A stretch of DNA of 64,000 nt, taken from contig JAQUPP010000001.1 in assembly GCA_028716665.1 (NCBI GenBank), positions 413,046 through 477,045 on the forward strand. Direction: 5' to 3'. This document shows, one piece after another, positions 2,224 to 63,912 of the stretch. The position numbers were made by a program, and so were the translations under genes. This stretch comes from Patescibacteria group bacterium. Its GTDB lineage: Bacteria > Patescibacteriota > Patescibacteriia > UBA2591 > JAQUPP01. The stretch's first letter is position 1; each line of letters starts with the position of its first letter. The notes beneath the pieces were generated by a model. The model searched no databases and was not told the DNA's origin. It saw nothing but the letters and a program-made list of their open reading frames with translations.

Positions 2224-3796
2224 AAGATTTTTTAAATTGGAATCAACCGTTGCCGGCGGAGCAATAATTATTGCTCTTTTTTCTATTTTGAGCCGCTTGC
2301 TCGGGCTCTTGAGAGATCGTTTATTAAGCGCTCATTTTGGCGCCGGTAAAATTCTGGACGCTTATTATGCCGCTTTCAGATTGCCGGATTTGGTTTTTAA
2401 TACTTTGGTTTTAGGAGCGCTCTCGGTTGCTTTTATTCCGGTTTTTTTGGAATATTTTGCCAAAGATAAAAAAGAGGCCTTTAAAGTTGCCAATTCCTTA
2501 TTAAATATTTTATTGACAGCCATTTTATTTTTAGTGGTTGTCTTTTTTATTTTTGCTCCCGTTTTGACTAAATTAATGGTGCCGGGTTTTGATTTGGAGA
2601 CCAGATTATTAACCATTAAATTGACAAGAATAATGCTGATTAGTATTTTATTTTTTACAATCAGCAATATCGCCGGCAGTATTTTAAATTCTTTCAAAAA
2701 ATGGTTAGCTTACAGTTTGGCATCAATAATGTATAATTTGGGAATTATTTTCGGTATTGTATTTTTGGTGAAAAAAATGGGATTTGTCGGTTTGGCTTGG
2801 GGCGTGGTTCTGGGCGCGTTTTTACATCTTTTAATTCAAATTCCAAGTCTTTTTAAAACCGGTTATCGGCCACAATTTATTTTCAATTGGCGACATCCGG
2901 CTGTTAAAAAAATCAGTGTTTTAATGTTGCCTCGTTGTTTTGCTTTGGGGATCAGGCAATTTAATTTGATTGCCACCACTTTTATTGCTTCTTCAATTGC
3001 CGTTGGCGCGGTGGCTGTTTACAATTTGGCTTTTAATTTGGTCAGTTTTCCAATCGGTATTTTTGGCGTTTCTTTGGCCTTGGCTGTTTTTCCGGTTTTA
3101 AGCCAAAGTTTTATTGACGGAGATAAAGCTCTTTTTACCCATCAAATTTCTAAAACAATAAGAAGAATTTTATATTTGATAATTCCCGCTACGGCCTTGT
3201 TTATTATTTTAAAAACTCAAATAGTCAGATTGATTTTAGGAACAGGCGCTTTTTCTCAGCAAGACATTATTTTAACCGCTCAAGCTTTGGCTTGGTTTTC
3301 AATTTCTTTATTTTCTGAAAGTTTAATTCCGGTTTTTGCCAGAGCTTTTTATGCCATTCAAGATACGAAAACTCCGACCATTATTGCCGCAGTCAGTTTT
3401 GTGATAAATATTATCGGTTGCATTATTTTTGGACACTTGATGAAAATCAGCGGTTTGGCATTGGCTTTTTCAATTTCTTCCGTTATAAATATCGGCTTGC
3501 TTTATTTTTATCTTAATAAAAAAATCGGCGATTTCGGAAAAAAAGAAATATTTTTATCATTTGGACGAATTATTTTTGTTTCTCTGGCTATGGCGAGTTT
3601 TGTCCAGATTATAAGTCATAAGATGGCATTACTGCTAAATCTACAAACTTTTACCGGCGTTTTAATTCAAAGTACTTGCGCTTTGATCGGCGGTATTTTA
3701 TTTTATTTGATTATTACTTTTATTTTGCAATTTCCGGAAGTGGAAATTGTTCATCAATTTGTTGTTAGAAAATTTAAGTTTCGTTCTAAAAATTAA
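2216..3796 (+). CDS. murJ: lipid II flippase MurJ (MviN family)
   Basis: 526 aa with about 14 TM helices and MurJ/MviN-like architecture and N-terminal region. Confidence 0.7.
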   Translation: MFKRFFKLESTVAGGAIIIALFSILSRLLGLLRDRLLSAHFGAGKILDAYYAAFRLPDLVFNTLVLGALSVAFIPVFLEYFAKDKKEAFKVANSLLNILLTAILFLVVVFFIFAPVLTKLMVPGFDLETRLLTIKLTRIMLISILFFTISNIAGSILNSFKKWLAYSLASIMYNLGIIFGIVFLVKKMGFVGLAWGVVLGAFLHLLIQIPSLFKTGYRPQFIFNWRHPAVKKISVLMLPRCFALGIRQFNLIATTFIASSIAVGAVAVYNLAFNLVSFPIGIFGVSLALAVFPVLSQSFIDGDKALFTHQISKTIRRILYLIIPATALFIILKTQIVRLILGTGAFSQQDIILTAQALAWFSISLFSESLIPVFARAFYAIQDTKTPTIIAAVSFVINIIGCIIFGHLMKISGLALAFSISSVINIGLLYFYLNKKIGDFGKKEIFLSFGRIIFVSLAMASFVQIISHKMALLLNLQTFTGVLIQSTCALIGGILFYLIITFILQFPEVEIVHQFVVRKFKFRSKN

Positions 3797-6024: not shown

Positions 6025-6235
6025 AAGCGGGACTAGAATTTGGAGAACCCTCACACCAAACTTAACATTAAACTTTTTATTTTAAACTAATAAAGCCGTA
6101 GGCGTTTCGCTCTACGGCTTTATTAGTTTGGATAATATAACGATGAGTTTGGTGTGCGGGGTTTAAATAAAAGTATTATAAATAATAAAATCGGAAGTTA
6201 AACTTCCGATTTTATTATTTTCTAAATTACTGATT

Positions 6236-7591: not shown

Positions 7592-7668
7592 AATATTTTT
7601 AATTGTAAATCTTTTTTAACTATTCGTCAAAATTTTTTATGTGGATAAGTATGAAAAATTTTATTTAA

Positions 7669-7826
7669 CTTGACCCCATCACATTGGAAATTATAAAAAT
7701 TACTGTCTTTCGTTTTTTATATACATGTTAATTTCTAATCTGAATTGGATATTTATTTTAATTTTTACTTTTTAAATCGTAATTTTCAAGAAAGACAATA
7801 ATTTCCTTGTGATGGGGTTGACAAAT
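7669..7826. repeat. MITE-like inverted-repeat element E1 with promoter-bearing right arm (GGGGTTGACA)
   Basis: About 35-bp terminal inverted repeats TTGACCCCATCACA...TGTGATGGGGTTGACA, with inner IR TACTGTCTTTCG/GAAAGACAATAA. Confidence 0.6.
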
Positions 7827-7875: not shown

Positions 7876-9024
7876 ATGTTTAAAGAGAAAATATTTTCTG
7901 AAAATCAAACAGAGAAAGAATCAGAAATTTTATTTTTGGGAAAAATTGAAGTTGCTAAAAAATCTTTAGAAAATTCTTTAAAATTAAAACCGGAAGAAAA
8001 AGTTTTATTTCTCAAGGATGAGAAAACCAATCTCGAAGTAGCTTCAATCTTAGAAAAAGCAGTTAGCGAGATAGGTTCTGAATTTCAAGAAATTTTATTG
8101 GATAAACAAACCAGAAGAGAAGAGATAAAAGAACTGCTTAAAAAATTCAAAGTTGTGATTGATGTATCTGAGAAAATGTACCCGGCTATTGATAATCTTT
8201 CAGACAAAGACATTGTAGAATATGGCAACCGCCTTTTGACCATTTTGGATCTGGGGGTTGATGCTTTTAAAAAAGATGGAGCATTAGATGAAAATTTAGA
8301 TGATTTAGAGTATAGGCTTAACAAAATGGAGGCGGTTTTGAAAGATGCCAGAGGTTTTAAGATTACTTCAAATTACGGGACAAATTTAGAAGTAGGATTG
8401 CGTCCATCTCATGAAAGACGGTGGTTTAAAGACGGGGGAGTTTTGGATAAACCTGGTCAATGGGGTAACTTTGTGGGTGGAGAAATTTTCACTACACCCG
8501 ACGAGAGAACAGTGAATGGAATTTTAATTTTACCTGTTTTAGAATCAATTATTACCTCGGATCAAGGAGTTGACGAGTTTGTTAAGATTAATATTAAAAA
8601 TGGATTAATTGCTTCTATCGAAGGCGGTAAATCAGCCGAAAAATTGAAGTCTGATTTAAAAGAGGATATGCAAGATGAGGTTAAAGAGAGCGGTAAACCG
8701 TTAAATGTTTTAAGAGTGGCGGAAATTGCATTTGGAGCAAACAGTAAGGCTCGGAGCACTGTTTCTGACCCCGAACAACCTTATGATTTTCCGGGTGTTT
8801 CAATAATTGAAGCGGAAAAAAGATTTGGAACAATGCATCTTGCTTTTGGTGATTCTAAGCATGGAGAGAAGGGTACTGAAGGATTTGAGACGGCTACTTC
8901 GCATTATGATTTTGTTATTCCAAGAAATGGTTTAACGGTTGAAATGTTTACCAGAGAAGAAGATTGGAAAAAGAAAAATAATGGTAAAAAAATAATTTCA
9001 AACGGCGGTTTAAATTTTTTCTAA
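7876..9024 (+). CDS. putative aminopeptidase (M29 / AmpS-like)
   Basis: Weak resemblance to thermophilic metalloprotease family (HLAFG-like motif, overall size). Uncertain. Confidence 0.3.
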   Translation: MFKEKIFSENQTEKESEILFLGKIEVAKKSLENSLKLKPEEKVLFLKDEKTNLEVASILEKAVSEIGSEFQEILLDKQTRREEIKELLKKFKVVIDVSEKMYPAIDNLSDKDIVEYGNRLLTILDLGVDAFKKDGALDENLDDLEYRLNKMEAVLKDARGFKITSNYGTNLEVGLRPSHERRWFKDGGVLDKPGQWGNFVGGEIFTTPDERTVNGILILPVLESIITSDQGVDEFVKINIKNGLIASIEGGKSAEKLKSDLKEDMQDEVKESGKPLNVLRVAEIAFGANSKARSTVSDPEQPYDFPGVSIIEAEKRFGTMHLAFGDSKHGEKGTEGFETATSHYDFVIPRNGLTVEMFTREEDWKKKNNGKKIISNGGLNFF

Positions 9025-11473: not shown

Positions 11474-11544
11474 TGCGGGGGGGGGATTCGAACCCCCAAC
11501 CTCCAGGTTATGGGCCTGGCGAGCTGCCACTGCTCTACCCCGCG
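11474..11544 (-). tRNA. initiator tRNA-fMet (CAT)
   Basis: Begins CGCGGGG and ends CCCCGCA-A (C1:A72 mismatch); alignable base for base with E. coli tRNA-fMet; anticodon CAT. Confidence 0.8.
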
Positions 11545-11795
11545 TCATTAAGAAATCGATTAGTTATTCTTTTCTTTTCCAAATATCCTTTTGTCGATTT
11601 TAGAAAATATTCTCTTTTATAAGCTTCGTTTTTATCGGAATATTCTTCATGATAGACTAACTTCCATGGTCGGCGAAATTTTGTCGCCCAATCTTTGCCA
11701 CGTTGATGTTCACTAAATCTTCTCTGTAAGTTAGATGTGCAACCGATATAAAATTTATTATCTTTTAAACTTTGTAATATATAAACGTAATACAC
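11535..11795 (-). CDS. GIY-YIG nuclease family protein (small, YhbQ/UPF0213-like), copy 1
   Basis: VYIL...KFYIGCT...R..EH motif set. GTG start. The last 10 nt including the stop overlap the 5' end of tRNA-fMet. Confidence 0.8.
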   Translation of the reverse strand: MYYVYILQSLKDNKFYIGCTSNLQRRFSEHQRGKDWATKFRRPWKLVYHEEYSDKNEAYKREYFLKSTKGYLEKKRITNRFLNDAG

Positions 11796-11808
11796 AATAG
11801 ATTTTAAT

Positions 11809-11867
11809 TTATGGGCCTGGCGAGACCCGAAGGGTGGCCCTTGGCCCTGCCACTGCTCTACCCCGCG
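11809..11867 (-). repeat. partial duplicate of tRNA-fMet (positions 1-37) carrying a 22-nt GC-rich double-hairpin insertion
   Basis: CGCGGGGTAGAGCAGTGGCAG-[GGCCAAGGGCCACCCTTCGGGT]-CTCGCCAGGCCCATAA, then divergence from the tRNA. Confidence 0.7.
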
Positions 11868-12118
11868 TCATTAAGAAATCGATTAGTTATTCTTTTCTTT
11901 TCCAAATATCCTTTTGTCGATTTTAGAAAATATTCTCTTTTATAAGCTTCATTTTTATCTGAATATTCTTCATGATAGACTAACTTCCATGGTCGGCGAA
12001 ATTTTGTCGCCCAATCTTTGCCACGTTGATGTTCATTAAATCTTCTCTGCAAATTAGATGTGCAACCGATATAAAATTTATTATCTTTTAAACTTTGTAA
12101 TATATAAACGTAATACAC
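11858..12118 (-). CDS. GIY-YIG nuclease family protein, copy 2 (tandem 323-bp unit)
   Basis: One amino-acid difference from copy 1. Its 3' end overlaps the partial tRNA copy just as copy 1 overlaps the intact tRNA. Confidence 0.8.
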   Translation of the reverse strand: MYYVYILQSLKDNKFYIGCTSNLQRRFNEHQRGKDWATKFRRPWKLVYHEEYSDKNEAYKREYFLKSTKGYLEKKRITNRFLNDAG

Positions 12119-17938: not shown

Positions 17939-18788
17939 AATTTCCGCCTCCCAGGTTTTTCACTTTGCCGTTTATTTCCATTAATGTCAAGATGGCAATG
18001 GCCTGACTGGTGCTAAATTTACTTGATTTAATTAATTGGTCAATATGCACGGGCTCGTGACTTAAAAATTTCCATAATATTTTTTCTTCCGGCAAAGTCG
18101 GTTCGGGTGTTTCGGAAATTTTTTCCGACAGTTCCAAATTAAAAGCGTCTAAAATATCTTCGGCTTTGGTAACCGCTTTCGCGCCCATTTTAATCAGTTG
18201 ATTGCAGCCGGCTGAATTCGGATTGTAAATGCTGCCTGGCACGGCGAAAACTTCCCGTCCTTGATCCAAAGCTGAATGCGCGGTAATCAATGCTCCGGAT
18301 TTTTCCGGTGCTTCTATCACCAAAGTTCCCAAAGAAAGTCCGGCGATAATTCTGTTTCTGGCTGGAAAAGTCCATCTGGTCGGGGAGGTGGTCGGTTGAT
18401 ATTCAGAAACTATTGCTCCGTTATTTTTAATAATATTTTTTGCCAAGGTTCTGTGAAGCGGCGGATAAATAATATCAGGACTTGAACCCAAAACCGCGAT
18501 TGTTCGGCCGCCATTATCCAAAGTTGTTTGATGAGCCAATCCGTCCACACCCAAAGCCAAACCGCTGACAATGGTTAATCCGGCCTTGACCAAATCTTTG
18601 GTTAAGGAAACGGTAATTTGCTTTCCATAACTTGAAACTTTTCTTGTCCCGACAATTGCCAAGGGATAATTTTCTTCCGCTTTGATTTTGCCGATGGCAT
18701 ACAGATTTTGAGGCGGGTCATAAATTTCTTTCAGCAGTTTCGGATAGTTTTTATCTTTGAGATTAATTTTTAAAACAGGGCTTGACAT
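17925..18788 (-). CDS. dprA: DNA processing protein DprA (Smf)
   Basis: Rossmann-like DprA domain (GLALGVDGLAH, VPGSIYNPNSAGCNQLIKMGA). Confidence 0.8.
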   Translation of the reverse strand: MSSPVLKINLKDKNYPKLLKEIYDPPQNLYAIGKIKAEENYPLAIVGTRKVSSYGKQITVSLTKDLVKAGLTIVSGLALGVDGLAHQTTLDNGGRTIAVLGSSPDIIYPPLHRTLAKNIIKNNGAIVSEYQPTTSPTRWTFPARNRIIAGLSLGTLVIEAPEKSGALITAHSALDQGREVFAVPGSIYNPNSAGCNQLIKMGAKAVTKAEDILDAFNLELSEKISETPEPTLPEEKILWKFLSHEPVHIDQLIKSSKFSTSQAIAILTLMEINGKVKNLGGGNYVKN

Positions 18789-23286: not shown

Positions 23287-23556
23287 ATGCCCGCCCAAAT
23301 TTTTTATTACGTATACATTTTGCGCAGTTTAAAAGATAGTAAATTTTATATTGGCTTTACAAAAGATTTAAGAAGAAGACTAGAAGAACACAATAATAAA
23401 ATGTCTACATCTACTAAATCAAGAGCGCCATTTACTTTGGTTTATTATGAAGCATATCTTCATTCAGGAGATGCCAAAGAACGAGAAAGATTTTTTAAAT
23501 CTGGGTGGGGTAGAAATTATATTAAAAAATCACTTAAACGTTATTTATGTCAATAA
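23287..23556 (+). CDS. GIY-YIG nuclease family protein, copy 3
   Basis: YYVYILRS...KFYIGFT motif set. The stop overlaps the murC start. Flanked by the two halves of a 34-nt palindrome. Confidence 0.8.
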   Translation: MPAQIFYYVYILRSLKDSKFYIGFTKDLRRRLEEHNNKMSTSTKSRAPFTLVYYEAYLHSGDAKERERFFKSGWGRNYIKKSLKRYLCQ

Positions 23557-25022
23557 AAAATTTAGGCGGGAAAAAAATACATTTTATCGGCTTGGGTGGA
23601 ATCGGGGTAAGCGCTCTGGCAAAAATGATGATTCAACAGGGCAAAAAAGTTTTTGGCTCTGATTTGAATTCTTCCGAAATAATCAAGAAACTGGAAAAAA
23701 TGGGAGTTAAATTTTATCAAGGCCATAAAGCGGAAAATTTGTCAGCTGATATTGATTTGGTTATTTATTCGCCGGCCGTGGAAAAAAATAATCCGGAAAG
23801 AATAAAAGCGAAAAAATTATCCATTCCCGAATTTTCTTATCCGGAATTTTTAGGAGAATTAAGCAAAGAAAAATTCACTATTGCTGTCAGCGGCACGCAT
23901 GGCAAATCAACCACTACGGCGATTTTGGGTTTGATTTTGGAACAAGCCAAATTGGATCCGTTAGTGATTGTCGGAAGTAAGGTGCCTCAATGGAATGGAA
24001 ATTTACGCATATCACGGACTAATACGGACTCAACGCGGACCAACACGGACAGTCAGCGTAAGTCAGTGTCAGGTCAGTGTCAGTCTGTGTTTGTGGTGGA
24101 AGCTTGCGAATGGCGGGCGCATATGTTGAATTTATCGCCCAAAATGATTGTTTTGAATAATTTGGAATTGGATCATACTGATTATTATAAAGACATCGAT
24201 CATTTAATTAGAACTTTTAAAACATATATTAAAAAATTGCCCAAAGACGGAGTTATAATTTTAAACGTTGACGATGTTAATTTGACCAAGCTTAAATCAA
24301 AAAACAAGACCATAACTTTTGGCATTAAAAATCACGCCGAAGTAATGGCGAAAAATATTATTACCAAACACGGCGAGCAAATTTTTGATTTATGTTTTAA
24401 GGGTAAAACTTACAATTTCCGGTTGAAAGTTCCGGGAATTTTTAATGTTTATAATGTTTTGGCGGCAACAGCCGGCGCTTTGGCATTGGGCGTTAAACCC
24501 GAAATAATTAAAAAATCCGTAGAAAATTTCTACGGGATTTGGCGAAGATTTGAGAAAATAGGGGAATATAAAAAAGCGATTATTATTTCCGATTATGCTC
24601 ATCATCCGACTGCTGTTTCCGGCACTATTCAAGCGGCTAAAGAATTTTACCCAGGAAAAAGAATCGTGGCAATATTTCAGCCTCATCATCACAATCGGAC
24701 TAAAAAATTATTTAAGGAGTTTATCAAGTGTTTTAAAGGCGCTGACCTGACAATCATTTCGGAAATTTACGATGTAGCGGGTCGAGAAGAAGAAAAAGAT
24801 CAAGATGTCAGTTCAAAAGATTTGGTTAAAGCAATCCGCGCCAGATATGAAAAAATTCCAAATTCCAAATTCCAAATTCCAAATTCTAAAAATGTTTTAT
24901 ATGCTAAAAATTTAGTAGAAGTTAAACAACTAATATTAAAGAACATAAAGCCAGGTGACGTAATCCTTGTCATGGGCGCAGGGGATATTTATCAAATTGC
25001 CAATGATTTGGTAAAAAGATAA
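23547..25022 (+). CDS. murC: UDP-N-acetylmuramate--L-alanine ligase MurC
   Basis: GIGGIGVSALA and GTHGKSTTT motifs and the Mur ligase C-terminal domain. Contains two odd in-frame repeat insertions (see findings). Confidence 0.85.
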   Translation: MSIKNLGGKKIHFIGLGGIGVSALAKMMIQQGKKVFGSDLNSSEIIKKLEKMGVKFYQGHKAENLSADIDLVIYSPAVEKNNPERIKAKKLSIPEFSYPEFLGELSKEKFTIAVSGTHGKSTTTAILGLILEQAKLDPLVIVGSKVPQWNGNLRISRTNTDSTRTNTDSQRKSVSGQCQSVFVVEACEWRAHMLNLSPKMIVLNNLELDHTDYYKDIDHLIRTFKTYIKKLPKDGVIILNVDDVNLTKLKSKNKTITFGIKNHAEVMAKNIITKHGEQIFDLCFKGKTYNFRLKVPGIFNVYNVLAATAGALALGVKPEIIKKSVENFYGIWRRFEKIGEYKKAIIISDYAHHPTAVSGTIQAAKEFYPGKRIVAIFQPHHHNRTKKLFKEFIKCFKGADLTIISEIYDVAGREEEKDQDVSSKDLVKAIRARYEKIPNSKFQIPNSKNVLYAKNLVEVKQLILKNIKPGDVILVMGAGDIYQIANDLVKR

Positions 25023-25083: not shown

Positions 25084-25240
25084 TTTTTAGTCTACAATAT
25101 TTTTTTGTATGCCAGGTAGTGAAAATTTGGTTAATAATCAATAAAGACAAGATTTTTACAAGCTGGCTTTTTAAAGAAATAAATTTATATTTTAAAAATA
25201 AATATAAAATTTAATAAATATCAAATTTCTACTACCTGGT

Positions 25241-25992: not shown

Positions 25993-26286
25993 ATGCCAGG
26001 TAGTGAAACTTTGATAACGATTATGTTTTATTATGTCTATGTTTTACAAAGTATAAAAAATAATGGCCTTTATGTGGGTTATACTTTAGATTTAAAGAAA
26101 AGATTACAAGAACATAATCGTAAATTAAATTTTTCTACCAAAGCAAATATCCCATGGAAACTTATTCACTATGAAGCCTATCTTAATAAAGACGATGCGC
26201 AACGTCGAGAGAAATATCTCAAAACTTCTCAAGGAGCCAGATTATTAAAGCGCATGCTTAAAGAATATTTTTATAATAATAAATAA
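25993..26286 (+). CDS. GIY-YIG nuclease family protein, copy 4 (between hrcA and grpE)
   Basis: MFYYVYVLQS...LYVGYT motif set; ATG embedded in the left terminal inverted repeat. Confidence 0.7.
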   Translation: MPGSETLITIMFYYVYVLQSIKNNGLYVGYTLDLKKRLQEHNRKLNFSTKANIPWKLIHYEAYLNKDDAQRREKYLKTSQGARLLKRMLKEYFYNNK

Positions 26287-26306
26287 TCAAAGTTCTACTA
26301 CCTGGT

Positions 26307-31962: not shown

Positions 31963-32018
31963 GTTTATAGGGGTTAAATAAAAAATATTTAACCCCTATT
32001 TTTTTTCTCTTGACCCCC

Positions 32019-32144
32019 TCACCAAAACGTTGATATTTATTAATAATAAGTCCGTCTTTATTAAAATTTATTTTATTATGTAAAAATTAAAAAATACAGA
32101 TATTAATTATTTTCATCAGCGTTATAGGTGAGGGGGTTGACAAA
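32019..32144. repeat. MITE-like element E5 (TTGACCCCCTCACC...GGTGAGGGGGTTGACA)
   Basis: Same terminal structure as E1; right arm forms the -35 of the promoter for 32256-33134. Confidence 0.55.
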
Positions 32145-32255
32145 ACACGAAAAATATGCTTAAATAATAGCAATATTTTAGAAATAGTTCTTTAAATATA
32201 TGCGGTAAAATTGCCGCATAAATAAAGTTGTCCCTAAAAGGGAAGGGGGTTTCAT

Positions 32256-33134
32256 ATGGAAACGAGGAAAATTGCTCTTGCTTGTTTTATCGGCGGAGCG
32301 CTTTGCTGCGCAGTTGCGTTATTTGCCGCACCAATGTATTGGTGGTTGGGTCTTCTGGCGGGATTTGCCGGCGGTTATCTCAGTTATGAGTTTCGCGGAG
32401 TTTGCAAAGCAGCACCAGTTGCTTTGAGGATTGCCACAAAAGAAAGCCGTAAAATTTATCAAAGTGAAATTGTCAGAACAAAAGAGTGGTTTTCTAAGAA
32501 CCACCCATTTGCTTATCTCAATATAATTTTGGCTGTGATATTCGGTCTTTATCTTATTCCTTATGATTGGATTATCGCAGATACATATCCGAACATATCA
32601 CACTATATGCGAGCTTTAATTACGTATTTTTCGATACAGGCGTTGGCTGTTTTTGGCGCGCCATTCCTTTTTTCTTTTTGGGGCGCAAGATTTGTTGATA
32701 AATGTTATTGGATATCAAAAGGGGAAGATGCATATTTAAAGGAAGCGAATAATCCGGATATATGGAGATACAAACTTAAACAAAAACCGCTGACTTATTT
32801 AAACGTTCTGCGTTGGATGGTATTAGGTGCTGGATTTTTTATTTGGACACCATGCAAATTTTGTCTTAAAATAGTTTGGACAATACTTTGTTTCTTGGGC
32901 CGTTTTGCCTGGCATCTCTTTCGGTTGATTCATTCAAACAAGAGGGTGCTTTGCGCAATTGACGGAACACTTGGCGGACTTATCAGTTATTTTTATTTTA
33001 TTTCCATGCCAATGCCATTTGGAAGCAAAATAATGTTCATTATTTTTGGAGGACTTTTGGGAGGAGTATTCGGCATTATAAGTTACGAGATAATCTCAAA
33101 AAGAATTCTTCACCTGAATGCGGCGACAACTTAG
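32256..33134 (+). CDS. hypothetical multi-TM membrane protein
   Basis: Promoter supplied by MITE-like element E5, SD GGGAAGGGGG, 292 aa with about 8 TM segments. Confidence 0.45.
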   Translation: METRKIALACFIGGALCCAVALFAAPMYWWLGLLAGFAGGYLSYEFRGVCKAAPVALRIATKESRKIYQSEIVRTKEWFSKNHPFAYLNIILAVIFGLYLIPYDWIIADTYPNISHYMRALITYFSIQALAVFGAPFLFSFWGARFVDKCYWISKGEDAYLKEANNPDIWRYKLKQKPLTYLNVLRWMVLGAGFFIWTPCKFCLKIVWTILCFLGRFAWHLFRLIHSNKRVLCAIDGTLGGLISYFYFISMPMPFGSKIMFIIFGGLLGGVFGIISYEIISKRILHLNAATT

Positions 33135-33303
33135 TAAAATAAATATACTGGCGGTTAGATAAATATCTTCCCGCCAGTTTTTTTACTCTTGGCCCACTTT
33201 CATAATTTACCATTAGGGGTTGACATTTTGGCAAAAATATGCTATTTTAAAGACAATTAGAGTTCGTTTAAAAAGCTTGTTTATTAACAAACAAGGAGGT
33301 AAG

Positions 33304-48092: not shown

Positions 48093-48207
48093 CCTTACGG
48101 GCGAAGAAAATAATTTGCCAAATTTTGAAAATTTGTTATAATAATTTTAATATTGCGGGATCGTCCCTCGGCCGTAGCCAGTAGGCTACTGCCTACGGGC
48201 GAGGCTA

Positions 48208-48462
48208 ATGGTAAATAAAACAATGCATACAATTTATGTTTTAAGAAGTCTGAAAGATGATAATTTATATATAGGCTGTACTTCTGATTTACAGAAGAGA
48301 TTAAGAGAACATAGAAATAAAAAAGTTTTTTCTACTCGCAATAGGTTGCCAATGAAGTTAATTTATTTTGAAAATTACCCTGATAAATATGAAGCTTATA
48401 GAATGGAAAGATTTTATAAAACCGCTAAAGGTAAAAAAATAATTAAAAACAAAATAATATAA
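48208..48462 (+). CDS. GIY-YIG nuclease family protein, copy 5 (immediately 5' of tRNA-Gln)
   Basis: IYVLRS...LYIGCT motif set; flanked by 12-nt direct repeats TGCGGGATCGTC. Confidence 0.75.
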   Translation: MVNKTMHTIYVLRSLKDDNLYIGCTSDLQKRLREHRNKKVFSTRNRLPMKLIYFENYPDKYEAYRMERFYKTAKGKKIIKNKII

Positions 48463-48469
48463 TAAATAA

Positions 48470-48545
48470 TGCGGGATCGTCTAATGGTAGGACTCCAGCC
48501 TTTGGAGCTGGCTATGATGGTTCGAATCCATCTCCCGCAGCCAAA
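48470..48545 (+). tRNA. tRNA-Gln (TTG)
   Basis: U1-A72 acceptor typical of bacterial tRNA-Gln, anticodon loop CTTTGGA, GGTTCGAATCC T-arm, encoded CCA. Confidence 0.8.
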
Positions 48546-53688: not shown

Positions 53689-53843
53689 TTGTCAAGCCCC
53701 CCACATGGGGATTATTGTCTTTCTTAAAAATTATGATTTAATAAGGTTGACTAAAATAAATGTTTAATTAAGATAAAATTAGAGTGGATATAAGAAACGA
53801 AAGACAGTAATTTTAATAATCCCTCTATGTGGGGGGCTCAAGT
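53689..53843. repeat. MITE-like element E2, opposite orientation (promoter fires leftward into 53148-53603)
   Basis: CAAGCCCCCCACATGGGGATTATTGTCTTTC ... GAAAGACAGTAATTTTAATAATCCCTCTATGTGGGGGGCTCAAG, same family as E1. Confidence 0.6.
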
Positions 53844-53877
53844 GGATAAAAATGTGTTATTATTTTGAATAATCAAT

Positions 53878-55988: not shown

Positions 55989-56063
55989 GCCAATAATAGG
56001 GGGCGACAAAAAGTCGCCCCTTTAACTTATCCCCAAAAAGGGGGTTGACCCCCTCACAAGGAA

Positions 56064-56216
56064 AACCATTGTCTTCCTTAGAAATTACAGTTTAATAGGC
56101 ATAAAGTTAAAAATAATCATTTAGATAAGATAAAATCATTGTATATATAAAAAAATGAAAGACAGTATACCCTTTATGGTTTTCCACATGTGAGGGGGTT
56201 GACAAATTTCAAAAAT
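56064..56216. repeat. MITE-like element E3 (TTGACCCCCTCACAAGGAAAACCATTGTCTTCC ... GGGGGTTGACA)
   Basis: Same family; right arm is the -35 for 56328-56777. Confidence 0.6.
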
Positions 56217-56327
56217 ATGCTATTATATATAACACAATAGTTCTTTACATAGCTAAAGCGATCCGGGCTAGATCTCTCAAAAGATCAAAAATGGATCGCA
56301 TAATAGTAGAAAGAAAAAGGGGGAAAA

Positions 56328-56777
56328 ATGAAAAAACTAAACAAAATTTTTGTTGTAGCCGTATTAATGACATTATTTGCCGAAGCGTATGGCGAACCGC
56401 CAACCTTGGAAAACAAGTTTGTACCGGTTCAAAAAACCGTAGTGGTTATGCCGGAAAATCAGGTCAACATATTGTCAGTTAATCCGGCAGAAGAGATAAA
56501 TACGGCAAATGAATTTGTAAAAAGATCTGCAATTATATTGATCGCACAGAACCTTGTGCCACCGGTAAAAAAAGTTCAAGATCAAATTGACTTGGGATTA
56601 CCCAAGATAAAAAATACTGCGATACGCAGCGAAAAGGTTTTTTCAAATTACCAAGTTCTGTCTCTACAAAAAGTAGGGATTGAGAATAATGGAGATACTG
56701 CCGTTTCTCGAGCCAAGAAAGAGCTCGACAAAAGAAACAAAGAAATGGCCAAGCCGATAGAATTGGCTTGCAAATAA
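56328..56777 (+). CDS. secreted hypothetical protein
   Basis: Signal peptide, SD AAAAAGGGGGAAAA-ATG, promoter from element E3. Confidence 0.45.
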   Translation: MKKLNKIFVVAVLMTLFAEAYGEPPTLENKFVPVQKTVVVMPENQVNILSVNPAEEINTANEFVKRSAIILIAQNLVPPVKKVQDQIDLGLPKIKNTAIRSEKVFSNYQVLSLQKVGIENNGDTAVSRAKKELDKRNKEMAKPIELACK

Positions 56778-56828: not shown

Positions 56829-56976
56829 CTTGACCCCACCACCTTGAAATTATAATGCTCAATTTTATATTTTCTGATTTAAAAATATTTTTTAATCAGA
56901 AAGGTTTAATAAATTATAAATTTAATTTTATACCTCGCATTTTTAAAATATAATTTCTAGGTGGTGGGGTTGACAG
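56829..56976. repeat. MITE-like element E4 (TTGACCCCACCACC...GGTGGTGGGGTTGACA)
   Basis: Same terminal family with a different inner hairpin; right arm is the -35 for 57064-57468. Confidence 0.55.
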
Positions 56977-57063
56977 ATTTTATTTTTTTGTTATAATCAA
57001 AAACAGACTTAAGGGCATGGTACCTTAAAAAAAGTCTGTCTATTGGCAGACAAGGAGGAGAAA

Positions 57064-57468
57064 ATGAGAAATTTTTTGAAGCTGGGAGTGTTGGTTGTCT
57101 TGGGATTTATCTTTTGCAGTATTTTTCTGACCAATCAAGTCAGAGCAGAAGTAAATGTCCCAAATGCAATGACTATAACACAGTCAACCAATATTGATTC
57201 CATAACAAGCCCGAAATGTTGTATTATCGCTGACAGCATAATATTCAATATTACGGAAAAGAAAGTAATTATTAAAAATGGCATCCTTACATATTTTAAT
57301 TCTAAGGATGAAAAAAGCTTGAACATAGTGATGAAAGAGGGTGTTTTTAATTTAGATAACACGTGGAATACGATATACTCGATTAAAAATTTTTCGGATA
57401 TAGAAGTATTTACCGTTATTAACGGTAAATATAAAAAGATTATCGACGATAAGTTAGAAAATTATTAA
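57064..57468 (+). CDS. secreted hypothetical protein
   Basis: Conserved cassette leader; signal peptide (LGVLVVLGFIFCSIFLTNQVRA). Confidence 0.45.
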   Translation: MRNFLKLGVLVVLGFIFCSIFLTNQVRAEVNVPNAMTITQSTNIDSITSPKCCIIADSIIFNITEKKVIIKNGILTYFNSKDEKSLNIVMKEGVFNLDNTWNTIYSIKNFSDIEVFTVINGKYKKIIDDKLENY

Positions 57469-60073: not shown

Positions 60074-60197
60074 GTTGACCCCGTCAGAAGTTTGGCGCAA
60101 GTCTTTATATTTTAAATAGTCATAACCGCAAAGCGGCTTCGCCTTAAGCTTTTCTATATCAATAATTTATAGATGAACTTTTAACGGGGTTGACAAA
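60074..60197. repeat. MITE-like element E6 (AACGGGGTTGACCCCGTCAG...AACGGGGTTGACA)
   Basis: Terminal repeats around GGGGTTGAC; right arm is the -35 for 60255-60905. Confidence 0.5.
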
Positions 60198-60254: not shown

Positions 60255-60905
60255 ATGAAAAATTCAAGAAGGGTAAAAGATTTAAAAAGAGTGAAAGATT
60301 TTGAGCCCAAGTATGTATATCCGGCTGTAGCACGCGAGATTATGAAGAGAAATATTTTCGGCATTGAAGAGGTGATAAAACATTTCCATCTTCATCCAAC
60401 CGACGAAGATCTTGCGATTTTATCGCAAGTACCATATTCAGAAAAAGTATTAAGAGTTTTTAAAGATAGCCATATTCTGGTTGTTAATTATGGCGAATCA
60501 ATTATTGATCAGAGAGATTTAAGTCCACAATTTTTTTATGGCAGCAAAAACGCCTGGTATAATTCCGAAGAATTTGCCAAAAACCCGGGAAAGATAGGAT
60601 GGAATTTAATAAGGAAGACAGAAATTCCGGGTTCTATCAATAAATCTTGGAGCGATCAAATGTCATTGCTTCGCGAAAATGAGAAAGTGCCGACAGCGCA
60701 AGAATTCGTAAATGCCATAGTGGCATTCAGTATTTTAGGGGAAAGACTGTTTAAGCATCGGCTTCTGAGGGTCTACGATATAGACAGATATGGCAATTGC
60801 GTTTACATCGGTAATCCCAGACCGACAAATATTCGGATATATAAATATGAAAAGAGTGTTCGTTTAGAGGGAGTAGGCCTGGCAAGCCAGATAATACCAA
60901 CATGA
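60255..60905 (+). CDS. hypothetical protein
   Basis: Promoter from element E6, SD AAAAGGAGGTCTTA-ATG, terminator after the stop. Confidence 0.4.
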   Translation: MKNSRRVKDLKRVKDFEPKYVYPAVAREIMKRNIFGIEEVIKHFHLHPTDEDLAILSQVPYSEKVLRVFKDSHILVVNYGESIIDQRDLSPQFFYGSKNAWYNSEEFAKNPGKIGWNLIRKTEIPGSINKSWSDQMSLLRENEKVPTAQEFVNAIVAFSILGERLFKHRLLRVYDIDRYGNCVYIGNPRPTNIRIYKYEKSVRLEGVGLASQIIPT

Positions 60906-62932: not shown

Positions 62933-63069
62933 AAGTAATTAAAATCAAAATTAAAAAATCAAAATGCAAAATGACAATGTAAAATTCAAAATTAAAATTA
63001 ATTTTTTTAAACATTTTAACATTTTGAAATGTCATTTTAATTTTTGATATTTACATTTTAAATTTCATT
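62933..63069. repeat. ~130-nt intergenic repeat, copy A, immediately 5' of the ABC ATPase start codon
   Basis: Near-identical to 63788-63912; contains three TGTAAAAT/ATTTTACA half-sites and an AAAATGACA...TGTCATTTT inverted repeat. Confidence 0.6.
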
Positions 63070-63789
63070 ATGGCTTTAATTGAAGTTAAAAATTTGGAAA
63101 AAATTTATCATACGGACAGCGTGGAAACGCCTGCCTTGATTGATACTTCTTTTAAGATAGAAAAAGGAGAATTTGTGGCAATCATGGGGCCGTCAGGTTC
63201 CGGGAAATCAACCTTGCTTCATATTTTGGGATTTTTGGATGAACCGACCGGCGGCGAATATTATTTTGACGGGAAATCACTCAGTGATTATTCACAAAAA
63301 GAAATAGCTATGGTCAGAAATAAAAAAATGGGATTTATTTTTCAGACTTTTAATTTACTCAGCCGAACTAGTGTTTTGGAAAATGTAAAATTGCCGCTTC
63401 TTTATTCTGATATTAAAGAATCGCTTTGGAATGAAATGGCGAAAAAGGCGATTGAGTCAGTCGGACTTTCGCATAGAATCAATCATTTGCCTTCGCAGCT
63501 TTCCGGCGGAGAAAAACAAAGAGTGGCCATTGCCAGAGCTTTGATTAATAATCCGCAAGTTATTTTTGCCGATGAACCGACCGGTAATCTTGATTCAAAA
63601 TCAGGACAAATTATCATGGAAATCATTCAGCGATTAAACGAGAAAGAAGGCAAAACAATTATTTTAATCACTCATGAAACCAATACGGCTGAACATGCTC
63701 AAAGAATTATTCATATGTTGGACGGACAAATTGACAGCGACAGAAATGTAGAAAATCGCAGGACAGCCCAAGATAGTTTTATTAAGTAA
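63070..63789 (+). CDS. ABC transporter ATP-binding protein (MacB/LolD-like)
   Basis: Walker [10 protein letters not shown], signature [15 protein letters not shown], Walker [13 protein letters not shown]. Confidence 0.85.
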
Positions 63790-63912
63790 TTTAAAATTCA
63801 AAAATCAAAGTGTAAAATGACAATGTAAAATTTAAAATTTTAATTTTCAAAAACATTTTAACATTTTGATTTGTCATTTTAATTTTTGATATTTACATTT
63901 TACATTTTTAAT
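63788..63912. repeat. ~125-nt intergenic repeat, copy B, immediately 5' of the FtsX-like permease start codon
   Basis: Same sequence family as copy A. Confidence 0.6.

Follow-up and report, generated by a model that had tools for sequence, protein, structure and literature searches.

What are the GC-tipped hairpins that precede TTGACA boxes in a stretch of Patescibacteria DNA, and did they bring the promoters with them? The stretch, referred to here as the window, comprises 64,000 nucleotides of contig JAQUPP010000001.1 (assembly GCA_028716665.1, positions 413,046 to 477,045, forward strand). An earlier note, made from its letters alone, had described six of these hairpins as mobile modules carrying an outward promoter to the genes behind them. 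The hairpins are very probably non-autonomous DNA transposons, i.e. miniature inverted-repeat transposable elements (MITEs), of a superfamily widespread in Patescibacteria (candidate phyla radiation, CPR), which insert in host -35 boxes. As far as the compared sequences tell, the promoters are host promoters that survived insertion, not cargo.

Hairpin elements in the window

All six noted elements are present in the sequence, the coordinates first given for the second and fourth being 10-20 nt off. A sensitive inverted-repeat census brought the hairpin copies in the 64-kb window to seven (c1-c6 and c7). Promoters were called as consensus matches, from sequence alone. Each copy is given below with its arms and target-site duplication (TSD), where recorded, and with the predicted host promoter.

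c1, 7674-7817: 144 bp, putative hairpin MITE without an open reading frame (ORF); arms CCCCATCACATTGGAAATTAT / ATAATTTCCTTGTGATGGGG; TSD TTGA at 7670-7673 and 7818-7821
c1 host promoter: -35 box TTGACA at 7818-7823, predicted to drive the aminopeptidase gene 7876-9024
c2, 32014-32136: 123 bp; arms CCCCCTCACCAAAACGTTGAT / ATCAGCGTTATAGGTGAGGGGG; TSD TTGA at 32010-13 and 32137-40
c2 host promoter: 32137-32165, before gene 32256-33134; terminator of the upstream gene at ~31970-32005
c3, 53696-53837: 142 bp; core homologous to c1; TSD TCAA at 53692-95 and 53838-41
c3 host promoter: minus strand, -35 box at 53695-53690, predicted to drive gene 53603-53148
c4, 56049-56198: 150 bp; core homologous to c1 and c3, inverted relative to the promoter; TSD TTGA at 56045-48 and 56199-202
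c4 host promoter: 56199-56226, TTGACA-16-TATTAT, before gene 56328-56777
c5, 56834-56969: 136 bp; 22-nt arms, 95% complementary; TSD TTGA at 56830-33 and 56970-73
c5 host promoter: 56970-56997, TTGACA-16-TATAAT, before gene 57064-57468
c6, 60079-60189: 111 bp, more degenerate; arms CCCCGTCAGAAGTT / AACTTTTAACGGGG; TSD TTGA at 60075-78 and 60190-93
c6 host promoter: starts at 60190, before gene 60255-60905
c7, 6048-6161: 114 bp; arms CCCTCACACCAAAC / GTTTGGTGTGCGGGG, matching the CPR-wide consensus; between convergent divIC-like and purD-like genes; no adjoining TTGACA

Copies c1-c6 are 111-150 bp long and end in terminal inverted repeats (TIRs) of the form CCCC..CAC / GTG..GGGG. Across copies the arms measure 14-27 nt, are 85-95% complementary and carry a conserved, GC-rich tip (consensus CCCCC[A/T]CACC[T/A]A); the cores between them are short, variable and AT-rich. 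The earlier note had read TTGA as part of the inverted repeat, whereas it lies outside the arms and is a direct repeat at both ends: the reverse complement of GGGGTTGA is TCAACCCC, not TTGACCCC. The inversion is confined to CCCC..CAC / GTG..GGGG. All of c1-c6 fold as long hairpins, with energies between -29 and -45 kcal/mol (z between -3.5 and -8.3), and c7 folds at -56 kcal/mol (z = -10.4). The motif GGGGTTGACA occurs 11 times in the window at one mismatch or fewer, against 1.7 expected, and none of 100 shuffles reached 11. At 33216 GGGGTTGACA, and at 18778 GGGCTTGACA, mark ordinary promoters without a clear element, the latter overlapping the dprA start codon. A scan of the window with Rfam at gathering thresholds returned 4 tRNAs only and no match at the elements, and no tRNA gene lies within c1-c6.

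Homologous cores are limited to c1, c3 and c4, the same copies in which the inner second inverted repeat of the earlier note (ACTGTCTTTC/GAAAGACA) was found, and the cores of c2, c5 and c6 show no likeness above shuffles to anything else in the window. The description of the elements as MITE-like and mobile stands: they are small and without a transposase ORF, have TIRs and a TSD of fixed length (4 bp), occur in many dispersed copies, and have precise empty sites in relatives.

Neighbouring copies also appear to have left traces. The left flank of c4 is CCCCaaaaaGGGGG and may be the remnant of an older adjacent copy; that of c6, ttaaCGGGG, repeats the right end of c6 itself and may be the solo end of a neighbouring copy. 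Tandem junctions of the type ...GGGGG-TTGA-CCCCC... are seen in L005 and L011 (related loci are numbered with the prefix L), and junctions of this type would account for GGGGTTGACCCC to the left of c4 and c6. In L005, a c6-type copy stands in tandem with a c2-type copy.

Host origin of the promoters

The earlier note had proposed a search for empty sites in related strains, and these were found for c1 and c3. Locus L156 is fully syntenic with the window at c1 (aminopeptidase 84% identical, flanks ~97% identical); at the position of TTGA[144 bp]TTGA in the window, it has ...TTATTTAAC-TTGA-CAAATT.... Locus L020, from the metagenome-assembled genome (MAG) STD1_195, belongs to a different species and is syntenic with window positions 53.5-63.7 kb. 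At c3 its sequence is tttttgTCAAgtggataaaaatg, against TCAA[142 bp]TCAA in the window, and the two are collinear once the element and one TCAA are deleted. Both empty alleles contain an intact TTGACA and -10 box. Therefore, TTGA was duplicated on insertion, and the right-hand TTGA together with the host CA rebuilt the -35 box. The spacer in L156 orthologous to that of c7 is too diverged to be called empty or occupied. A comparison of L020 4581-4695 with window ~60960 was rejected as a clean pair, L020 having an extra ~310 bp that include a mini-gene. Between the window and sister assemblies of its own population (L001, L148-L155) identity is at least 99.98%, and these assemblies thus show no polymorphism; Logan contigs break inside c2 at 32117.

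On insertion exactly 4 bp of the target are duplicated, in the lineage of the window nearly always the TTGA of a TTGACA -35 hexamer. The left TTGA then abuts the element, reading TTGACC, and the right TTGA plus the host CA restores the -35 box before an unchanged -10 box and gene. The element only swaps the DNA upstream of the -35 box for GGGG and a hairpin.

A closer look at orientation bears on the same point. The c4 core matches those of c1 and c3 only when reverse-complemented (46.5 and 43.5, against 13±3 and a maximum of 23 for shuffles), with TTGACA on the same side. The c5 orthologue in L020 (2259-2391) is flipped (53.0 versus 20±2.7 for shuffles), and the promoter, leader and gene 3' of c5 are orthologous between the window and L020. 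Copies of the c2 subfamily occur in both orientations in L002, L005, L011, L013, L023 and L026. Orthologous L020 sites also hold c4 (1522-1671) and c6 (~3509-3625). The sequence 3' of TTGACA is orthologous between genomes at each locus, whereas between copies only the generic consensus is common.

These data weigh on the idea of a mobile module that delivers an outward promoter, with TTGACA at its right end and a -10 box, to genes. Its appeal lies in the fact that c1-c6 all adjoin TTGACA, followed 16-18 nt downstream by a -10-like box and then a gene, even if the -10 box of c1 is weak (TAACCT). However, the element adds nothing to the -35 hexamer: TTGA is duplicated target, and CA and the -10 box are host sequence that is already in place at the empty sites. 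The core flips relative to the promoter, and what follows TTGACA is not shared by the copies beyond the consensus. Near-consensus TTGACA-N16/17-TATAAT promoters, often with TGC ahead of the -10 box, are common in the window and mostly free of elements (~21 intergenic TTGACA sites have a -10 box, the majority without an element). Moreover, c7 and ~70% of the TSD-bearing metagenome copies (among the matches listed) are not at promoters. A promoter-delivering module is therefore very improbable.

The hairpin had also been taken for a terminator or insulator. Canonical GC-hairpin/T-run terminators of the upstream genes stand directly before c2, c4, c5 and c6, and the right arm of the elements is followed by TTGACA with no T-run, which does not support an intrinsic terminator. 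The claim that most copies precede accessory or secreted-protein genes was likewise not borne out: the gene downstream of c1 encodes an M29-type aminopeptidase and the others are small ORFs without a Pfam match, some with hydrophobic N-termini.

Target-site duplication and distribution

Metagenomes were scanned with the arms specified and the flanks left free, giving at least 120 loci (L028-L147); the metagenome counts below are among the matches listed. Identical 4-bp flanks were present in 60 of 110 unique copies, compared with 7.2±2.5 (maximum 16) in the permutation null. Repeats of 2, 3, 5 and 6 bp were found in 5, 7, 2 and 0 copies, respectively. The duplicated tetramers included TAAA/TTTA (24), TTGA/TCAA (12) and CTTG/CAAG (10), and 17 of the 60 TSD-bearing copies lay in a TTGACA-like hexamer (at least 5/6) with a -10 box. 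In the window the TSD is 4 bp in 6/7 copies. Among the copies of L028-L147 that lack a duplication, some non-identical flank pairs recur, namely TTCA...TAAA, TTTA...TGAA and TTCA...TGAA; possible sources are recombination between copies, inversion between them, and chimeras assembled at the repeat.

TTGACA promoters with a -10 box make up 18% of the intergenic TTGA sites in the window, and 6/6 copies lie at them (P ~4e-5). This suggests extended target recognition, selection for harmless sites, or both. Where copies from the lineage of the window came to light independently of the patterns, nearly all are at TTGA|CA. The promoter association probably reflects a target preference reaching beyond TTGA, the -35 site being one of few harmless insertion points in compact genomes.

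To gauge taxonomic breadth we have a 24-base two-arm pattern with TTGAC flanks, scanned over 185,579 GTDB species-representative genomes. It matched 26 loci, all in Patescibacteria, with ~0.1 chance matches expected at equal base frequencies. These span Kaiser-, Wolfe-, Yonath-, Lipton-, Magasanik- and Berkelbacteria, Saccharibacteria and Paceibacterota, and the strict pattern occurs five times in STD1_195 and four times in LW4_32. The outer ~12 nt recur across lineages; the inner arm is copy-specific yet complementary.

Copies in the ~1 Mb of CPR DNA examined fall into size classes of 27-62 bp, 111-160 bp and 287-331 bp. The smallest (27-62 bp) consist of arms only and still have 4-bp duplications, and hence the termini alone appear sufficient for mobility. 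Minimal copies of 32-62 bp are:

L134, 8472-8513: TSD CTTG
L133, 12412-12451: TSD TTTT
L081, 11470-11513: TSD TAAA
L023, 1285-1346: TSD TTGA
L156, 11453-11484: TSD CTTG

Copies in tRNA and rRNA genes

Some copies carry a complete tRNA gene between the same arms, and others lie inside rRNA genes:

L052 1144-1268; L053 6764-6891; L063 2677-2807; L068 2155-2282; L104 2507-2609; L107 1694-1823; L114 7243-7347; L118 12594-12701: complete tRNA gene between the arms
L071 1350-1486 (beside group I introns); L100 1367-1503; L127 3773-3907 and 5525-5660: copy inside a 23S rRNA gene

The cargo tRNAs are Gly-CCC, Arg-GCG, Arg-CCU, Pro-UGG and Pro-CGG (ARAGORN; 48-72 bits with Rfam tRNA). Copies with tRNA cargo are themselves found inside chromosomal tRNA genes, at L068 2155-2282, L107 1694-1823 (the same as L110), L052 1087-1268 and L063 2677-2807. 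Those of L068 and L107, the latter a nested case, sit at CAAG in the anticodon loop; removal of the element and one duplication restores tRNA-Glu(CUC) in L068 and tRNA-Gly(CCC) in L107. The cargo of L107 and L052 has the same anticodon as the disrupted host tRNA and looks like a replacement for it.

In CPR rRNA genes, GIY-YIG ORFs in non-intron insertions and uncharacterised ORF-less insertions of <200 bp have been described (PMC11270868). That article contains 0 occurrences of 'inverted repeat' and makes no mention of target duplications, spread beyond rRNA genes or promoter targeting. Because copies lie inside the 23S genes of L071, L100 and L127, its insertions are probably the same elements.

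Elements filled by a GIY-YIG gene

The 287-331-bp elements have the family termini and are filled end to end by a single ORF for an 84-93-aa GIY-YIG protein (Pfam PF01541, 55-69 bits). ORF-bearing elements with arms CCCCCACACC, CTCCCACACC or CCCCTCAC and a 4-bp TSD were found at L061 (two copies), L101, L133, L160/L166, L170/L172, L173, L179 and L182. Their inverted repeats have z = 9-16, and arms plus a 4-bp TSD are present in every independent context examined. The L160/L166 element lies in a TTGA|CA box upstream of rplJ, and those of L101, L133, L170, L173, L179 and L182 lie at TTAT|CCACA. This DnaA-box-like 9-mer is also the constant site of one GIY-YIG element clade (L101 1404-1720, L133 3520-3835, L103 2190-2324, L170, L173, L179 and L182).

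The GIY-YIG family comprises 598 protein clusters, almost all exactly 84 aa long, with invariant catalytic-type residues Y5, Y16, G18, R26, H30 and E62 (numbering of the L101 protein). The closest solved structures are UPF0213 proteins (1ywl, 1zg2) and SLX1. Multi-contig clusters were rejected as evidence of multiple copies, being mostly the same locus resampled.

Sister families with other termini, B and C, are present in the window:

25112-25239: family B, ORF-less; 128 bp; arms CCAGGTAGTGAAAATTTGG / CAAATTTCTACTACCTGG, CCAGGTAGTGAAA ends; TSD TATG at 25108-11 and 25240-43
25996-26305, plus strand: family B, ORF-bearing; 310 bp; same CCAGGTAGTGAAA termini; 97-aa GIY-YIG protein (PF01541, 59 bits); TSD TATG at 25992-95 and 26306-09
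23290-23570, plus strand: family C, ORF-bearing; 281 bp; arms CCCGCCCAAATTTTTT / AAAAAATTTAGGCGGG (z = 8.2); 89-aa GIY-YIG protein (55 bits)

In family B the host ATG is regenerated on the right and the left ATG heads the element: the right-hand ATG of the TSD is the hrcA start codon at 25112-25239 and the grpE start codon at 25996-26305. Empty sites exist for hrcA in L183 and, clean, for grpE in L183 and L184. The family C element has ends CCCGCCCAAATTTT / AAAATTTAGGCGGG and stands directly after the murC ATG (window 23287-23570). Its GIY-YIG ORF uses that ATG, and murC appears to restart at an ATG overlapping the end of the ORF. It is present in L183 and absent in L184, and no clean 4-bp duplication is visible at this murC insertion. 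The 32-bp copy at L156 11453-11484 (TSD CTTG) belongs to family C. The ORF-bearing GIY-YIG elements with TIRs are thus proven insertions, paired with ORF-less derivatives.

The window holds five GIY-YIG mini-genes. At 48154-48481 a 304-bp insert with an 84-aa GIY-YIG gene follows nt 12 of a tRNA-Gln gene, with TGCGGGATCGTC at 48154-48165 and 48470-48481. Downstream of the insert the tRNA is again complete. The insert itself has a hairpin at its left end and no long-range inverted repeats, a style unlike c1-c7. At 11535-12118, two tandem, near-identical 86-aa GIY-YIG genes with identical flanks stand directly 5' of two tRNA-Met genes and overlap the 5' end of the first. The hrcA leader of L183 (~3690-3780) contains an extra hairpin-like insert of ~80 nt, GGAAAAGTAATC...GATTACTTTTCC, which is absent from the window and may be another small mobile hairpin.

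What moves the elements

Judging from the sequences of the ORF-bearing forms, the GIY-YIG protein may well mobilise the elements in trans. Insertion would probably begin with 4-nt staggered cleavage, both of the target and of the hairpin or cruciform at its GC-clamped base, and end with ligation and fill-in by the host; putative targets of the 84-aa protein are TTGACA, TTATCCACA and TATG. More tentatively, and short of a probable conclusion, the 0.3-kb elements could form a new class of autonomous transposon whose sole protein is an 84-aa GIY-YIG nuclease, with c1-c7 as their MITEs. Such a class would be spread across the whole of the Patescibacteria, insert at short motifs while regenerating them (-35 TTGA|CA, start codons T|ATG, TTAT|CCACA boxes, tRNA anticodon loops and rRNA helices), and occasionally ferry tRNA genes.

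Several observations count against this account. The window contains no GIY-YIG gene with c1-c7-type termini, and its five GIY-YIG proteins are just 41-48% identical to the family-A protein. Inverted repeats bracket 6 of the 14 testable GIY-YIG genes in the examined DNA. No duplication is recognisable at c7, and 49 of the 109 metagenome copies with long enough flanks (among the matches listed) have mismatched flanks, the result of decay, of recombination between copies or of chimeric assembly. As a class, GIY-YIG enzymes are nucleases that act by hydrolysis, we know of none that catalyses transposition, and duplications of 4 bp are a classic product of DDE transposases. Since tRNA genes also occur as cargo within the same arms, the GIY-YIG ORF may itself be a passenger. 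Moreover, TTGA is non-palindromic, and under sticky-end cutting and ligation the flips would need a separate inversion step.

The chief alternative is a conventional transposase, such as a DDE enzyme that cleaves with a 4-bp stagger, whose gene would lie elsewhere and which would move the MITEs to the same -35 targets with GIY-YIG and tRNA genes as passengers. A 4-bp TSD with TIRs is the classic DDE signature, the cargo is variable (tRNA-Gly, -Arg and -Pro genes between the same arms), and GIY-YIG genes are also found without inverted repeats. The IS1380/piggyBac group, with CC... ends and 4-5-bp duplications, may be similar in these respects. However, among >200 copies in the ~1 Mb of CPR DNA no transposase-sized copy was seen, and end pairs 0.5-5 kb apart were separate short elements. 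Unpaired ends gave minimal and 0.3-kb forms and no transposase, and none is present in the annotated parts of the window or of the syntenic loci. Three unrelated terminus families, moreover, each include a form that a GIY-YIG ORF occupies from one end to the other. We therefore consider a conventional transposase possible but rather unlikely.

The hairpins might instead have been co-opted as cis-regulators, through insulation, factor binding or a cruciform/supercoiling effect, and be kept at promoters by selection. They are very stable, c4, c5 and c6 persist at orthologous sites in another species, and the -35 enrichment exceeds tetramer availability; in addition, the left junction makes TTGACC, and in c1 and c5 the arm contains TATAAA/TATAAT 15-16 nt further in. 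Against this, the cores are unconserved between subfamilies and flippable, presence varies between close relatives, the upstream genes already have terminators, and no Rfam family matches. Co-option, which we hold to be improbable, is in any case compatible with a transposon origin rather than an alternative to it. Least credible are REP/REPIN-like doublets spread via single-stranded DNA by a single-copy RAYT (HUH Y1) transposase. Like the present elements, REPINs form hairpins, are intergenic, have tips conserved clade-wide and reach many copies per genome, but a clear 4-bp TSD is not expected from HUH/Y1 single-strand transposition, there is no GTAG-type REP head, and no RAYT-like gene lies in the annotated loci.

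Other candidates were rejected. An inverton does not fit a promoter outside the inverted repeats with no invertase nearby; an attC site or integron lacks its RYYYAAC/GTTRRRY core here; and an IS200/IS605-type element is at odds with target duplication and long-range inverted repeats.

Comparison with known systems

The Correia elements of Neisseria (CREE/NEMIS) resemble the family described here. They are hairpin MITEs of ~100-160 bp with TIRs, are abundant between genes and close to them, interact with promoters and have no cognate transposase identified; they form RNA hairpins when transcribed. They differ in their TSD (TA, 2 bp, against 4 bp in the CPR family), in unrelated termini with a characteristic 26-bp inverted repeat (CCCC..CAC in the CPR family), and in their confinement to one genus, whereas the CPR termini span a superphylum. 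Moreover, Correia ends supply -35/-10-like boxes, while in the CPR family the -35 box is rebuilt from duplicated host sequence. Rickettsia palindromic elements are likewise short palindromic selfish repeats without a known transposase that are tolerated inside genes, including RNA genes. Their sequence and host are unrelated, they insert in frame into proteins, and neither a GIY-YIG partner nor a defined 4-bp TSD has been described for them. Hairpin intervening sequences of 23S rRNA that are excised by RNase III are the counterpart with which the copies inside 23S rRNA genes were compared.

With regard to the 0.3-kb forms, their ORF encodes a single GIY-YIG domain, best matched among solved structures by the stand-alone GIY-YIG proteins of UPF0213 (1ywl, 1zg2) and by the structure-specific endonuclease SLX1. 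SLX1 cuts branched and hairpin DNA, and SLX1-like cleavage would suit an element that forms cruciforms. To our knowledge no UPF0213 or SLX1 protein has been described as the sole gene of an element with TIRs and TSDs, and we found no such description in the open-access literature searched. Free-standing or intron-borne GIY-YIG homing endonuclease genes (I-TevI, Seg) are also selfish, have a GIY-YIG nuclease as sole gene and often lie in or near tRNA and rRNA genes. However, homing enzymes have 200-250 aa with a DNA-binding domain, recognise long targets, spread by break repair and have no inverted repeats or TSD. The 0.3-kb forms encode 84 aa, use 4-9-bp targets and have TSDs; homing was rejected on the inverted repeats, the 4-bp TSDs (TATG, TTAT, TTGA) and the diverse targets. 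In the open-access literature searched we found neither MITEs of CPR bacteria described nor GIY-YIG elements that combine inverted repeats with duplications.

Other features of the window

The window has a G+C content of 30-40% (mostly 32-37%) and is ~86% coding. Its genes are housekeeping genes (lepA, topA, dprA, dnaK, grpE, murC, maf) and many small ORFs, and its sequence is matched by the Patescibacteria MAGs GCA_028690995.1 and GCA_028713475.1. The DnaA-box-like motif targeted by the GIY-YIG element clade (TGTGGATAA, GTGGATAAA; 7641-7649 and 53843-53851) adjoins the divergent promoters that hold c1 and c3. Two AT-rich inverted-repeat structures of 50 nt, unrelated to the CCCC...GGGG family, bracket gene 63070-63789:

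62936-63070: AT-rich inverted-repeat structure, common motifs AAAATCAAAATG.AAAATGACAATGTAAAAT
63788-63906: AT-rich inverted-repeat structure, same motifs

Implications

MITEs as a kind are known; here the -35 targeting, the wide taxonomic range and the putative role of a GIY-YIG protein in mobility are unusual, and the elements may represent a new transposon class. In practical terms, the GGGG-TTGACA 'promoter elements' of Patescibacteria MAGs, like short orphan hairpins and many of the contig breaks there, are to be read as transposon copies, and TTGACC at a left junction as the relic of a promoter rather than a promoter in its own right. The unexplained insertions of CPR rRNA genes (PMC11270868), both the short ORF-less ones and those that encode a GIY-YIG protein, probably belong to this family.

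Should the GIY-YIG protein prove to drive mobility, it would be a new transposase type and, with its element, a very small, programmable-looking nuclease/element pair. If the 0.3-kb elements are autonomous, they would be among the smallest self-mobilising elements, with a fold not previously tied to TIR/TSD transposition. For the host, insertion that regenerates its motif (TTGA|CA; T|ATG in family B) would let a parasite proliferate in a gene-dense genome of ~0.6 Mb. The insertion of tRNA-carrying copies into tRNA genes hints at an unusual way for reduced genomes to turn over their tRNA genes.

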